DNA of 9,600 bases from a virus (taxonomy: Duplodnaviria > Heunggongvirae > Uroviricota > Caudoviricetes), in IMG/VR virus record IMGVR_UViG_2609460125_000002, positions 1 to 9,600 of that record; one strand, written 5' to 3'. This document shows, piece after piece, positions 1-9,600 of the stretch. Positions within the stretch are counted from its first letter, which is position 1, and each line of letters starts with the position of its first letter. The notes below the pieces were generated by a model. That model made no database searches. It was not told where the DNA came from and saw only the letters and a program-made list of their open reading frames with translations. Made by a program: the position numbers and the translations under genes.

Positions 1-274
1 AACATCAATGTCGCGTAAAGGTAACTGTTACGACAACGCTCCGATGGAAAGCTTCTGGGGAACGCTGAAAAATGAGAGCCTGAGCCACTATCGTTTAATA
101 ACCGGGATGAAGCCATCTCAGTAATACGGGAATACATTGAGATTTTCTACAATCGTCAGCGTCGTCACTCTCGTCTGGGGAATATCTCCCCGGCAGCCTT
201 CAGGGAAAAATATCATCAGATGACTGCTTAAAAAAAGAACAAATGGTAGTGTCCGCTATTGCCAGTACACCTCA
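1..274 (+). mobile_element. 3' portion of an IS3-family insertion sequence (OrfB C-terminus plus right terminal region); exact IS not identified; right boundary approximate (269-274)
   Basis: Translation of 2..124 gives TSMSRKGNCYDNAPMESFWGTLKNESLSHYR, the conserved DDE-region signature of IS3-family OrfB. The adjacent integrase reading frame becomes non-integrase sequence at about 270-275. Terminal bases ...CAGTACA / ...CCTCA fit the TG...CA tips of IS3-family ends. Confidence 0.6.
2..231 (+). pseudogene. IS3-family transposase OrfB, C-terminal fragment with a frameshift
   Basis: Frame 2 reads ...GNCYDNAPMESFWGTLKNESLSHYRLITGMKPSQ* (stop 122-124). Frame 1 from 97 reads NNRDEAISVIREYIEIFYNRQRRHSRLGNISPAAFREKYHQMTA* (stop 229-231), the expected continuation of the same domain. 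A single missing base near 95-97 (cgttt-aataacc) joins the two. Confidence 0.6.
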
Positions 275-939
275 TCAAGGTCTGTAACGTTGGAACGGCG
301 AAGGCCTGTCGTGATTGCAAACATGACCACAGGGAAGAAATGAGGAGCAATTTCTGCAAACAGGCGCTTCGATTCCTCCTCTGTAAGCCATCTGATTCGT
401 CCATTCTTAACGCGTGGTGTTGATATTTTGGGCGCCCTGTCAAGCCATCCCCATTCAACAGCCATATTGAGAATAGCGCGAAGTATTGCCAGATGCCGCG
501 TCTTCGTTCCTTTGCTTGCCAGCTTTGGTTTATACTCCGGCACTGGCTTGCCAAGCCGCAAACACCTGTCCCGGCTCATTTCCCAGTTCAGGCGATGGCG
601 GCGGTTTTCCATCCCGTCTACCGCCTCCATTATTTTTTCTGTTGTTATGTCAGAGAGAATGGTTTCTCTGAAGTGCAACATCCAGAACGATATAATGCTC
701 TTGTCATCATCAATGGACTTCTTATCCGATTTCTCACGCAGCCACCGTATGCAGGCTTCCTTGAATAGCTTTTTCGGCGATTCCCCGAGATTTTTTACTC
801 TCCACGCTTCTGCTTTCAGACGATCGTGAAGTTCTTGCGCTTGCCTTTTGTCCGATGTTTCAAGAGAGCGTCTAACTCTTGATCCATCTGGCGCGACGAA
901 ATCGCAGTGCCACGTGCCACCGCGTAGTTTGATTGACAT
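256..939 (-). pseudogene. int: Phage tyrosine integrase, N-terminal fragment (227-aa ORF); catalytic C-terminal domain absent
   Basis: ATG at 939 preceded by AGGAGG (8 nt spacing). Protein has the N-terminal/core-binding region and ends just after a box-I-like motif AITTGLRRSNVTDL; no box II (HxxR...Y) follows. The last ~6 codons and the stop (256-258) appear to be supplied by the IS end. Confidence 0.7.
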
Positions 940-5203: not shown

Positions 5204-5362
5204 TTATGGCGATACCAGAGAGCTTTCTGCGTGTACATGCGTCTCTGTAACTTGCTCTCCTTCACTGTGGTTGCAAGTGACATGCATATCTCCTTCGTTA
5301 CCGATTAATTCTTTCATCTGACGAATGAATTCTTCGTCTGACCAGTTATCTGTAAAACTCAT
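5204..5362 (-). CDS. Small hypothetical protein, 52 aa (MSFTDNWSDEEFIRQMKELIGNEGDMHVTCNHSEGEQVTETHVHAESSLVSP); not in ORF track
   Basis: ATG overlaps the stop of the kil-like gene (ATGA) with AGGAA upstream. Lies between kil and the annealase, where P22 carries arf; no sequence evidence for that identity. Confidence 0.35.
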   Translation of the reverse strand: MSFTDNWSDEEFIRQMKELIGNEGDMHVTCNHSEGEQVTETHVHAESSLVSP

Positions 5363-5511
5363 TTCCTGCGATACCACGGAAGGTTGATAGCTGATTTCAT
5401 CGCTTTATTTGCTTCAAGCCACATTTTTGAATCACCAATAAATCTGGCTATTACTGCTTTGTTCTGTGCAGCACGAAGCATCTGGTGATTGATGGCTATT
5501 TCATTGCGCAT
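5359..5511 (-). CDS. kil: Kil-like host cell-division inhibitor, 50 aa (MRNEIAINHQMLRAAQNKAVIARFIGDSKMWLEANKAMKSAINLPWYRRK); not in ORF track
   Basis: Core VIARFIGDSKMW closely resembles lambda Kil (IATFIGDEKMF, as recalled); position directly downstream of the cIII-like gene as in lambda; GAGG 8 nt upstream of ATG. Confidence 0.5.
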   Translation of the reverse strand: MRNEIAINHQMLRAAQNKAVIARFIGDSKMWLEANKAMKSAINLPWYRRK

Positions 5512-5627
5512 AATAAGACCTCAACTCTTTTCCATCCGTCACGTAATTTACGGGTGATTCGCTCAAGTAAAGATTCATTTAGTTGGAAGGCACCCATGCG
5601 AGCGCCTCCCGCGATTGCGTAAATCAT
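5496..5627 (-). CDS. cIII: CIII-like FtsH protease inhibitor, 43 aa (MIYAIAGGARMGAFQLNESLLERITRKLRDGWKRVEVLLCAMK); not in ORF track
   Basis: Contains ESLLERITRKLRDGWKR, matching the essential central helix of lambda CIII as recalled, and an MxYAIAG N-terminus; AAGGAA RBS 7 nt upstream. Confidence 0.6.
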   Translation of the reverse strand: MIYAIAGGARMGAFQLNESLLERITRKLRDGWKRVEVLLCAMK

Positions 5628-5651: not shown

Positions 5652-6620
5652 TTAGTAGGTTATTTTTGTTGCGAATACTTCGCCTTTTACGATGGCTGTT
5701 ATGATATTTTTAGCAACATCTTCTGATGCACCAACCTTGATAAGGTCAACAAGTATTTTGTTATTTACTTCTTTCCGGTGAGCTTTATCTTTTGCTCTAC
5801 GCTCTTCTTCGTCCTTGATTCTTTTTTCTTCTGCTATTCTGGCTTGCTCTTTTGCTTCAGCCTCGCGACGGATTCGTTCAGCCTCCTCCTGTGCTTTTCT
5901 GCGTTCTGCTTCAATTGCCGCATGCTTTTCTCTTTCAGCTCGTTCCGCCGCCTCTTTTGCTTCGCGCTGTGCTCGTTGCTCGGCTTCAATGCGTTCACGC
6001 TCTGCTCGTTCCGCAGCGGCCTTAGCTTCTGCTTCTCGCCTTGCTGCTGCTTCAATTTCGGCTTTTGCCTTTGCTTCGGCTTCTGCTCTGACTTTCTCTT
6101 CAGCTTCTCTTTTTAAGCGTTCTTCATGCTCTCGCTTTTCCTGCTCCGCTTTGAGTCTTGCCTCTTCTCTTTGGCGGTCAAATTCGCGATCCATCAAAAT
6201 CGCTATTTCATGGTCAGACTCAATTTGCTTTGCGAGAGCTTCAGCTGCTGCCTTAGCTTCTTCTTCGGCTTTAATCCGCGCCTGCTCCTCCTCATAATCA
6301 GTAAGAGGCTGGCGCGCCTTGGCTTTCAGTTCATCAAGGCGATCACGCACTGTCTTGCGGTTGGCATCAATTAGCTTTGGAATTTCCTTCAGTTCAGCAA
6401 CAAGGTCTTTGCCAAGACCATCGAGATATGTTTTCGTCTGCGCAACTTTATACGCCAGAGAAGCGATCTCCTTTCTGCCCTTTGCCGTTGTGATATCAGG
6501 CACAAAGGACATAACTTCACGTTCAACCTTTTGGAGAATTTCTTCAATCTGGTCGGCAGACTTAAATACAGTCATTGCATTTGCTTTTTCAATAACAACT
6601 AAATCTGTTACTTCACTCAT
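5652..6620 (-). CDS. Hypothetical phage protein, 322 aa: N-terminal domain, ~150-residue E/A/K/R-rich coiled-coil (TolA-like low complexity), short C-terminal domain
   Basis: ATG at 6620 with GGAGG 5 nt upstream, directly after a terminator hairpin; the track start at 6674 reads through that terminator. The underlying DNA is repetitive and produces spurious plus-strand ORFs. Confidence 0.6.
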   Translation of the reverse strand: MSEVTDLVVIEKANAMTVFKSADQIEEILQKVEREVMSFVPDITTAKGRKEIASLAYKVAQTKTYLDGLGKDLVAELKEIPKLIDANRKTVRDRLDELKAKARQPLTDYEEEQARIKAEEEAKAAAEALAKQIESDHEIAILMDREFDRQREEARLKAEQEKREHEERLKREAEEKVRAEAEAKAKAEIEAAARREAEAKAAAERAERERIEAEQRAQREAKEAAERAEREKHAAIEAERRKAQEEAERIRREAEAKEQARIAEEKRIKDEEERRAKDKAHRKEVNNKILVDLIKVGASEDVAKNIITAIVKGEVFATKITY

Positions 6621-6630
6621 ATATCCTCCA

Positions 6631-6662
6631 TCAAAAAAATTGCCCTCACACTGGAGGGCAAA
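6631..6662 (-). terminator. Intrinsic terminator (minus strand): stem TGCCCTC/GAGGGCA, 6-nt loop, followed by U7
   Basis: Plus strand 6633-6660 aaaaaaaTTGCCCTCacactgGAGGGCA; on the minus strand the hairpin precedes UUUUUUU and then the GGAGG RBS of the 322-aa gene. Confidence 0.5.
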
Positions 6663-6721
6663 GAAGATTTCCAATAATCAGAACAAGTCGGCTCCTGTTT
6701 AGTTACGAGCGACATTGCTCC

Positions 6722-7271: not shown

Positions 7272-7298
7272 CCAAAAATAAAGGCCGACTATGCGACC
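7272..7298 (-). terminator. Intrinsic terminator (minus strand): 5-bp stem with one G-U pair, loop CAUAGU, followed by UUUAUUUUU
   Basis: Plus strand 7274-7298 aaaaataaaGGCCGactatgCGACC; the loop contains the UAG stop (7289-7291) of the 207-aa gene. Confidence 0.4.
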
Positions 7299-7912
7299 TC
7301 GGAAGGAAGTCCAATCATCTTATTCAAATCTTCTACCCGTAAAGCAGGAAGTGCTGTACTTGCTTTATCTGCTTCTTTTGGTAGCAATTCTTTGCTTTCA
7401 GGCCAAACTTCAATAAGTCGCTTAACTGTTGTGACTGAGTTCAAAGCAGCCCATACATTTGATTCGATATCCTTTTTCTTGGCTTCAAGTTTTTGTTGCA
7501 ATGCGCAGATTTCATCAAACCTTTTTGTTATTTTGTGTTCTGCATCAAACATGCATTTATCTTTGGTTGGAGTAGGGAGAAATATATCTTCGCCATTGCC
7601 GTCTTTCCCATATGAATGCCATCCAACCCTTCTGCCAGATACAGTCAGATAAATTGAAGTAGAACGAAATTCGTATGAGTAAAATGAACATCCCATCTTT
7701 TCAAGTTCTTCACTTATAGCTACCAACTTGGATGATAACTGATCCACTTCCTCAGTTTTCTTTTTACCGCCAAACGCAATAACTCTGGCGTCAAGTGCAA
7801 GCTGGTTCTTTAACTTTGTTACTTCTTCAAGTTCAGTGAAAACCCCAGACTTAATTAAAGCGTTACGAGCGATTTCCTCTTTCATTCTCGTAGTTAAGCG
7901 GATTGATGACAT
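7289..7912 (-). CDS. Hypothetical phage protein, 207 aa, unknown function
   Basis: ATG at 7912 with GAGG 8 nt upstream, after a terminator hairpin; the track start (7927) is a TTG extension. No catalytic motif or strongly hydrophobic segment recognised. Confidence 0.55.
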   Translation of the reverse strand: MSSIRLTTRMKEEIARNALIKSGVFTELEEVTKLKNQLALDARVIAFGGKKKTEEVDQLSSKLVAISEELEKMGCSFYSYEFRSTSIYLTVSGRRVGWHSYGKDGNGEDIFLPTPTKDKCMFDAEHKITKRFDEICALQQKLEAKKKDIESNVWAALNSVTTVKRLIEVWPESKELLPKEADKASTALPALRVEDLNKMIGLPSEVA

Positions 7913-7936
7913 ATTAATTCCTCTCAAATAAGAAAA

Positions 7937-7962
7937 TAAAGGCCACCATCAGGCAGCCTTGT
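7937..7962 (-). terminator. Intrinsic terminator (minus strand): hairpin with UGAU loop followed by a U-rich tract
   Basis: Plus strand 7939-7960 AAGGCcaCCatcaGGcaGCCTT preceded by aaaataaa; the loop contains the UGA stop (7949-7951) of the ral-like gene; same loop sequence as the terminator at 1628-1641. Confidence 0.4.
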
Positions 7963-8143
7963 TGTTCTGTTTACCAAGTTCTCTGGCAATCATTGCCGTA
8001 GTTTGTATTGCCCATTTATCGACATATTTCCCATCTTCCATTACAGGAAACATTTCTTCAGGCTTAACCATGCATTCCGATTGCAGTTTGCATCCATTGC
8101 ATCGCTTGAATTGTCCACACCATTGATTTGTATCAATAGTCAT
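7949..8143 (-). CDS. ral: Ral-like restriction-alleviation protein, 64 aa, Cys-rich
   Basis: Four cysteines at residues 9, 15, 18 and 24; strongly resembles lambda Ral as recalled; located in the leftward operon downstream of the N-like gene, as ral is in lambda. Confidence 0.5.
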   Translation of the reverse strand: MTIDTNQWCGQFKRCNGCKLQSECMVKPEEMFPVMEDGKYVDKWAIQTTAMIARELGKQNNKAA

Positions 8144-8275
8144 ACGGATAGTCCTGGTATTGTTCCATCACATCCTGAGGATGCTCTTCGAACTCTTCAA
8201 ATTCTTCTTCCATATCTCACCTCAAATAAGTGGTTTGCTGCCAAAACAATGAACCATCCGGAAATTCCAGATAGT

Positions 8276-8503
8276 TCATAATTCACTCTTCAATACTTCC
8301 AACTTACTAATCGCCGATAGATATCCGCGCTGATAGGGCATCATCATTCCTTCGAGCTTGCCACTTCTTAACTCCTCCCTGAGCAATTGTATTGCTTGAT
8401 CAATAACCTCTGCCTTAGCGTCCTTTATGGCTTGCTTGCGGGGCTTTGCTTTCTGCTTTGGCAGATTTCTCAAGCATGATGGAATGTATGTCTGATTCAC
8501 CAC
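8276..8503 (-). CDS. Hypothetical phage protein, 75 aa (GTG start immediately after the N-like stop)
   Basis: ORF begins at a GTG directly abutting the TAA of the upstream gene (TAAGTG), with GAGG just upstream; lysine-rich, no recognised motif. Confidence 0.4.
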   Translation of the reverse strand: MVNQTYIPSCLRNLPKQKAKPRKQAIKDAKAEVIDQAIQLLREELRSGKLEGMMMPYQRGYLSAISKLEVLKSEL

Positions 8504-8776
8504 TTACCTCGCTGTCAGTTGTTTTGATTTCCGGTAGCCTGCCGCGTAAATGGCTACGTTTGGCAGGCAAATACTTCCACTGCATTCATCTGCCTTCTTG
8601 CAGCGAAGGCTTCCGAGTGATGCTGCTTTATCTGCTCTGACGCAACCAGAGAGCTTTAGCGCAATTTTTCGTGCCAGTCGCTGCTCTTGCATTGCCTGTT
8701 CACGTTGAGCCTGTCTGCGTGCTCTGCGGCGATTTCTGGCGTTATCGTCAGCCAGATATGTAATGACTACTGCCAT
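8504..8776 (-). CDS. N-like transcription antitermination protein, 90 aa, with an arginine-rich motif
   Basis: ATG at 8776 with GGAGGT 4 nt upstream; N-terminal DDNARNRRRARRQAQREQ resembles the arginine-rich boxB-binding motif of lambdoid N proteins; first gene of a terminator-punctuated leftward operon. Confidence 0.45.
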   Translation of the reverse strand: MAVVITYLADDNARNRRRARRQAQREQAMQEQRLARKIALKLSGCVRADKAASLGSLRCKKADECSGSICLPNVAIYAAGYRKSKQLTAR

Positions 8777-8934
8777 GTTGACCTCCGATGATTGACTTTG
8801 GCGGTGACGCGACGGGTGCTTATCTTCCGGTTGCTGTCGTGCAGCTGCACTTCACGTCACCCTGAAGTGGCACACTGAATTTGGCCACCTGAACAGAGGT
8901 GATATGCTCACCTCAGAACAACACAGGTGCTCCA

Positions 8935-9600
<666 letters not shown>

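Follow-up and report, generated by a model that had tools for sequence, protein, structure and literature searches.

In a prophage of the HK620 type, an IS911 copy lies between pL/nutL and the antiterminator gene N and probably attenuates the leftward operon

The leader RNA of the lambda N gene is processed by RNase III, and the N protein is short-lived and acts stoichiometrically. In phage lambda, nutL is located ~200 bp upstream of N, the leader between the two is highly structured, and N bound at nutL together with Nus factors represses the translation of N itself (PMC5725501). In phage HK620 (AF335538.1; Clark et al, 2001), N heads the leftward early operon, 3' of pL and nutL, and a tL1 terminator is annotated after the first gene(s) past N. 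Phage Sf6 (AF547987.1) carries a copy of IS911 in ninG, and deletion of this element left the levels of late-gene transcripts unchanged (PMC5630979). The window, by which we mean the whole stretch of 9,600 nucleotides under analysis, is a contig comprising the entire early-left arm of a prophage between two IS3-family elements, and in it an N gene of the HK620 type stands next to an IS911 end (Table 1).

The 90-aa product of this gene matched the Pfam family PF25694 (“Transcriptional antitermination N peptide”, N_peptide) across residues 11–90, with 57.5 bits (E 2.1e-15) against a curated cutoff of 27.9 bits. The original prediction had recognised in the protein an arginine-rich motif typical of N antiterminators. 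This motif is present as NARNRRRARRQAQRE in the N-terminal part (about residues 11–26, with seven arginines in 15 residues as read from the translation), in agreement with the family match and with the 96.7% identity to the annotated N of HK620 that was obtained in a translated search of phage records. P22-type N shares ~57% identity with the protein across residues 47–90, which correspond to its C-terminal half. An exact-protein look-up identified the identical 90-aa sequence in thousands of assemblies of the E. coli type; none of the NCBIfam models matched N or the adjacent 75-aa ORF, and a PDB sequence search with N returned only chance matches to RNF168. In uninterrupted relatives, as in HK620, the leftward early operon opens with N, downstream of pL and nutL; in this prophage, it is located downstream of these elements only across IS911. 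Judged by all that sequence can tell (family profile, arginine-rich motif, position in the operon, and cognate nut sites in both early operons), the gene is a member of the lambdoid N family.

The start codon of N (ATG at 8776) and the first base of IS911 (8863) are separated by exactly 86 bp, the distance given at the outset. This remnant is collinear with the HK620 leader save for three substitutions and contains a Shine-Dalgarno sequence, GGAGG. It had been claimed to hold no boxA/boxB-like element and no convincing promoter, and both statements were borne out. The cognate boxA GCTCTTTAAC and boxB CCGCCGAAATGCGG, which we found on the far side of the element, occur neither in the 86 bp nor elsewhere in the window, where only chance-level near-matches were detected (at 7805 and 998). 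A consensus scan with a threshold of 9/12 matching positions identified no sigma-70-like promoter on either strand between 8200 and 9600. A more permissive scan of the N-coding strand between 8760 and 9600 (at least 8/12 matches, spacers of 15–19) returned one weak match, below the 4.2 ± 2.5 obtained in shuffled sequences; this sole match scored 8/12, with a -35 hexamer matching at 3/6 positions and a spacer of 19 nt. Rfam models gave nothing at the gathering threshold within the window. Between IS911 and N there is thus neither a promoter nor a nut site. As a separate observation, among 12 relatives only this prophage has the leader substitutions at window positions 8835 (G to A) and 8812 (G to T, both read on the N strand), the latter giving the remaining stem an extra A-U pair, although its N protein is identical to that of 10 of them.

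The region across the element was accessible on a scaffold, KN150717.1 (GCA_000754175.1; hereafter L010), which we retrieved by an exact look-up of the N protein and which matches the window exactly, in reverse complement, for 6 kb or more. Window position 9600 corresponds to L010 5177, and a 100-N scaffold gap (L010 5077–5176) starts exactly at the window end, which identifies the window as a whole contig ending within IS911. The two IS911 halves are accordingly connected by a scaffold join through the 100-N gap, beyond which lie the right 334 bp of IS911. Followed in the leftward direction of transcription, that side consists of a cI-type repressor gene, a 122-aa gene, a promoter-like TTTACA-17-TATTCT, boxA GCTCTTTAAC, the boxB hairpin CCGCCGAAATGCGG, 26 nt, and the IS end. 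The pL/oL and boxB hairpin that were to be sought beyond the element are thus in place, and they are of the HK620 type. The boxB is predicted to fold into a 6-bp stem with a 6-nt loop, CGAAAU. An identical pair of boxA and boxB recurs just 3' of cro, in the place expected for nutR, and two boxB matches were obtained in none of 200 shuffled sequences. A permissive Rfam scan across L010 2900–6400 returned one chance-level match (SCARNA7, 18.5 bits vs 65), and no nut or boxB family was noticed in it.

Table 1. Features of the locus. Positions refer to the window unless prefixed by L010, which denotes scaffold KN150717.1.
Feature	Position	Strand	Evidence or remarks
IS600 end	1 to ~285		about 98% identity to many copies
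Integrase ORF	256–939	(-)	227 aa, cut by IS600
kil	5359–5511	(-)	Pfam Lambda_Kil, 72.6 bits
cIII	5496–5627	(-)	Pfam Lambda_CIII, 56 bits
Coiled-coil protein gene	5652–6674	(-)	340 aa; no Pfam match
Nmad5 gene	7289–7927	(-)	212 aa; “Nucleotide modification associated domain 5”, 242 bits
ral	7949–8143		next to Nmad5 gene in early-left operon
tL1-like intrinsic terminator candidate	8249–8279	(-)	14-bp stem, then UUGUUUUGG; terminator scan; fold -20.8 kcal/mol
ORF directly 3' of N	8276–8503	(-)	75 aa; no family match
N antiterminator gene, HK620 type	8504–8776	(-)	90 aa, ATG at 8776; ORF list, Pfam, identity to HK620 N
Distal N leader kept beside the gene	8777–8862	(-)	sequence, fold, HK620 collinearity, negative motif and promoter scans
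Shine-Dalgarno sequence	8782–8786		GGAGG
3' arm of lower leader stem	about 8792–8802		left without partner
Upper stem-loop of leader hairpin	8803–8861		predicted fold -31.4 kcal/mol, z -2.25
CACTTCA heptamer	8848–8854	(+)	in target DNA, 8 bp from IS end
3-bp target-site duplication, one copy	8860–8862		CCC on (+), GGG on N strand; junction comparison
IS911, left 738 bp from IRL inward	8863–9600	(+)	98.4% identity to annotated E. coli IS911
IS911 orfA remnant	8935–9186	(+)	83 aa; Pfam HTH_Tnp_1
nutR-position boxA and boxB	L010 3005–3045	(-)	identical to nutL copy; just 3' of cro
nutL boxA and boxB	L010 4678–4716	(+)	across the IS from N
3-bp target-site duplication, second copy	L010 4740–4742		far side of IS; junction comparison
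IRR end with outward TTGACC	L010 4743–4760		TTGACC 6 nt from tip

The HK620 record annotates the sequences found beyond the element as OL1-3, pL, and nutL. Once IS911 and one copy of the target duplication are removed, L010 matches HK620 with 100% identity along a stretch that begins upstream of OL3 and includes pL and nutL; the remaining differences affect three positions of the distal leader and one of N codon 2. Comparison with uninterrupted relatives gave the same picture, since pL, nutL, the leader, and N are contiguous in 11 relatives and in HK620. In all of these, the sequence …GGCTTTGGGGTGACG… is continuous, with GGG present once, and the corresponding flanks in this prophage read …GGCTTTGGGG - IS - GGGTGACG…. 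The insertion point is located 83 nt 5' of the N start codon and about 24–26 nt 3' of the nutL boxB. A 3-bp target duplication (occasionally one of 4 bp) is the signature of IS911. By its junctions, the element is therefore a simple IS911 insertion with a 3-bp GGG duplication, and the claim that it separated N and its operon from pL and nutL stands, given that pL and nutL lie across the IS, that the duplication is present, and that the region is contiguous in relatives. Neither junction matched the GTDB species-representative genomes in an exact search, or the complete E. coli genomes of the collection searched, which indicates an insertion confined to the source lineage.

Terminal inverted repeats starting with TGAAGTGG, as expected of IS911, are found at both tips of the element (IRL at window 8863, IRR at L010 4743). 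The left end, TGAAGTGGCACACTGAATTTGG, begins at 8863 on the plus strand, and the direction of the transposase is also plus, divergent from N. The complete copy is ~1248 bp long. Across 738 bp, its IRL half differs from the IS911 of Sf6 by one 1-nt deletion and one substitution; relative to the E. coli IS911 reference, 12 positions differ in the IRL half and the 334 bp of the IRR half are 100% identical. The 1-nt deletion falls in a C run near 9106 and truncates OrfA. The same 83-aa OrfA is encoded by several IS911 copies at unrelated loci of two closed, IS-laden chromosomes of 4.5 Mb (CP026810.1 and LR861788.1), which argues that the deletion is real and not a read error. An intact orfA and orfB pair with the programmed -1 frameshift is accordingly not found here because of the orfA deletion, and 176 bp of orfB fall inside the scaffold gap. 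The copy is IS911 by its nucleotide sequence but probably non-autonomous. This defective variant has therefore multiplied, presumably through mobilisation in trans.

The target DNA contains the heptamer CACTTCA, which repeats the IS911 terminal TGAAGTG (8863–8869) in inverted form at all 7 nt. It predates the insertion, being found also in HK620 and other relatives, and only two further copies are present in the window outside the IS. IS911 reportedly tends to insert beside sequences that resemble its inverted repeats (a preference attributed to work by Loot and colleagues in 2002), of which this heptamer is reminiscent.

Because the contig ends inside the element and 100 N bridge the scaffold, we considered whether the two junctions might lie apart in the chromosome, through either a scaffold misjoin or a recombination between IS911 copies that followed the insertion and carried pL and nutL away from N; in either case, the operon would be fully cut off. 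Many IS911 copies are present in this type of genome, and the two halves of the element differ in their distance from the E. coli reference (12 differences in the IRL half and none in the IRR half). The latter disparity, however, simply reflects that the IRL half has the Shigella/Sf6 allele of IS911. Both junctions also occur in one assembly, show the 3-bp duplication without a mismatch, and when combined restore the HK620 sequence base for base, and the prophage genes on either side of the IS are collinear with those of HK620-like phages. We consequently regard separated junctions as very unlikely and retain the simple insertion.

A second possibility was that N is driven, independently of pL, by a promoter in IS911 or in the 86-bp remnant, and would be expressed constitutively or under control of the IS. 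No positive support for such a promoter emerged, although weak or non-consensus promoters may escape consensus scans. No site with 9/12 matches was detected on either strand, be it between 8200 and 9600 or in the full-length IS911, and the single 8/12 match described above compares with 4.2 expected. The IRR end carries a TTGACC facing outward, which serves as the -35 element of the IS911 circle-junction promoter. It is directed to pL and cI and points away from N, the wrong orientation for a hybrid promoter of N formed by the IS and its flank. Even if transcripts were to begin inside the IS, they would lack nutL and should halt at the tL1-like terminator, so that kil would be silent anyway. 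Expression of N from a promoter within this interval is, in our judgement, extremely unlikely, and pL remains the promoter that we assign to N.

Insertion at this point also affects the predicted structure of the leader. For the HK620 RNA from nutL to the ribosome-binding site, folding predicted a stem of 20 bp interrupted by a single bulge (-38.8 kcal/mol, z -3.05), a stability equalled by one of 200 shuffled sequences. IS911 sits in the 5' arm of this predicted hairpin. Beside N, only the upper portion remains able to fold, and the 3' arm of the lower stem is left without a partner. With at most three differing leader positions, the 12 relatives are too similar for a covariation analysis of this stem.

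We propose that a Shigella-type IS911 transposed into the untranslated N leader of a lambdoid prophage with the immunity region, oL/pL, and nutL of HK620. The resulting leftward order would be pL - boxA - boxB - 26 nt - IS911 (~1248 nt in antisense, IRR in and IRL out) - 86 nt - N, followed by the 75-aa ORF, the tL1-like terminator, ral, then cIII and kil, and finally int. After loss of the repressor, transcripts from pL would reach N only after crossing an untranslated antisense IS stretch of ~1.25 kb. This antisense RNA contains several C-rich, G-poor windows of 78 nt with C/G ratios of 1.4–1.7, values typical of Rho loading sites. From such C-rich untranslated RNA, Rho-dependent polarity on N is to be expected, and it should sharply lower the first round of N synthesis. 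The strong terminator predicted after the 75-aa ORF implies that ral, cIII, kil, and the genes beyond would need N-modified polymerase; the recombination genes past this terminator would likewise depend on N, as would delayed-early and late genes in the right operon. Polymerases initiating at any point 3' of nutL could not become N-modified. Since N is unstable, acts stoichiometrically, and is required by these later genes, the prophage should behave as a leaky N-minus mutant. Strong polar attenuation with such a phenotype is our preferred reading, to which we assign a probability of roughly 0.7, the polarity being deduced from the composition of the RNA.

The original prediction had gone further in proposing that the insertion silences the whole operon, including kil. 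Silencing is plausible in light of the expected polarity, but uncoupling is the weak part of that claim, as pL and nutL remain connected to N by a leader that is ~1.25 kb longer, and transcripts from pL, which still include nutL, could in principle continue through the IS into N. We found no strong intrinsic terminator on the antisense strand of IS911, where two weak hairpins with poor U tracts were no more than those of shuffled sequences, and no promoter-like site on either strand of the full-length element. nutL is intact and located in cis upstream of the IS, so any N that is made would let later polymerases cross it. For the left operon, we accordingly favour strong attenuation over absolute silencing.

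The same features raise the question of whether the block might be not only leaky but self-relieving. Here, a few unmodified transcripts from pL would produce some N, which would act at the nutL boxB and allow passage through the IS; the process would be autocatalytic, and the left operon, including kil, would be induced late or in some cells. The intact pL and nutL 5' of the IS, and the lack of a strong intrinsic terminator in antisense IS911, are consistent with this scenario, and N-modified complexes suppress the Rho-dependent polarity of IS insertions over kilobases. Sf6 offers a parallel: its N-dependent transcription has to pass an antisense IS911 to reach Q, and the viability of the phage and late transcripts that are not measurably affected by the element indicate that N-modified polymerase crosses it. 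Against this, a short-lived protein that acts stoichiometrically may stay below its threshold if the leak is small, 1.25 kb of C-rich untranslated RNA is a good Rho substrate, and the predicted leader hairpin beside the ribosome-binding site is disrupted. We therefore consider a self-relieving block, the main rival reading, unlikely, if worth bearing in mind, and favour persistent strong attenuation. A related and more doubtful idea concerns regulation. Since N would be needed for the very passage through the IS on which its own synthesis depends, the usual feed-forward step might become a positive-feedback loop with a threshold, autorepression mediated by nutL might be lost, and the lytic switch could be rewired by the IS into a delayed or bistable one instead of simply being destroyed; we think that this is improbable.

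Two further genes of the leftward arm are noted in their own right. The Nmad5 gene belongs to the early-left operon, and it is missing from the stretch of HK620 examined just 3' of N. Just 5' of cIII and kil is a gene for a highly charged coiled-coil protein rich in Glu, Ala, Lys, and Arg. Its relatives are named “TolA” or “coiled-coil domain-containing”, and in Sf6 the name is “similar to phage D3 Orf53”. The integrase ORF, located at the opposite window end, has been truncated by IS600 and gave no match to a Pfam integrase catalytic domain. Together with the insertion before N, this probably reflects IS-driven decay of a prophage in an IS-rich genome, probably of Shigella, an assignment suggested by the IS911 allele and the load of IS600 and IS911. 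The prophage should be called defective, with N probably blocked by polarity and int truncated, and its kil, cIII, and recombination genes are unlikely to be normally expressed upon SOS induction. Beyond annotation, the significance of the case is limited. It illustrates that when a nut site or promoter appears to be missing beside an IS, one should look across the element, and the arrangement nutL - antisense IS911 - N provides a natural construct for measuring N-independent transcription through an IS.

Among known systems, HK620 shares with this prophage the OL, pL, and nutL region without a difference, a highly similar N, and the same cI and 122-aa hkaS-like gene upstream. The two differ in that the ~1248-bp IS911 after nutL is present here only, and in the genes 3' of N, where the 75-aa ORF, ral, and the Nmad5 gene take the place of hkaQ and the sieB-like hkaP of HK620. 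The likeness to lambda lies in the order of promoter, boxA, boxB hairpin, a structured leader of 100–200 nt, N as the first gene, and then a terminator, and in a second nut site after cro, which here is identical to the first. However, the arginine-rich motif and the boxB sequence are unlike those of lambda (with a predicted loop CGAAAU here), and N has 90 aa compared with 107; the proteins belong to the same Pfam family, the C-terminal half being of the P22/HK620 type.

Sf6 carries a near-identical IS911 allele (two differences in 738 bp) that likewise occupies an N-antiterminated early operon past a nut site and has the same relative orientation as here, its transposase being antisense to pR transcription. 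This insertion lies far downstream of N, in the part of the nin region that separates nutR from Q, so that the supply of N is unaffected and the phage is viable. We rejected it for this reason as a model of an IS in the left operon and retained it as a comparator for read-through. In the prophage described here, by contrast, IS911 is 5' of N, and the antiterminator needed for crossing is encoded behind it. Adhya, Gottesman, and de Crombrugghe are reported to have described, in 1974, IS insertions that were polar on operons transcribed from pL and whose polarity N relieved. This locus resembles those classical cases in having an IS between a nut-bearing promoter and the genes downstream. All of its components are known (an HK620-type N, pL, and nutL; IS911; polar IS insertion in a prophage), and the finding is known in kind. 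Only the topology is mildly unusual: in the classical insertions, N was supplied from an intact gene, whereas here N is itself downstream of the IS, behind an obstacle that its own product could overcome.
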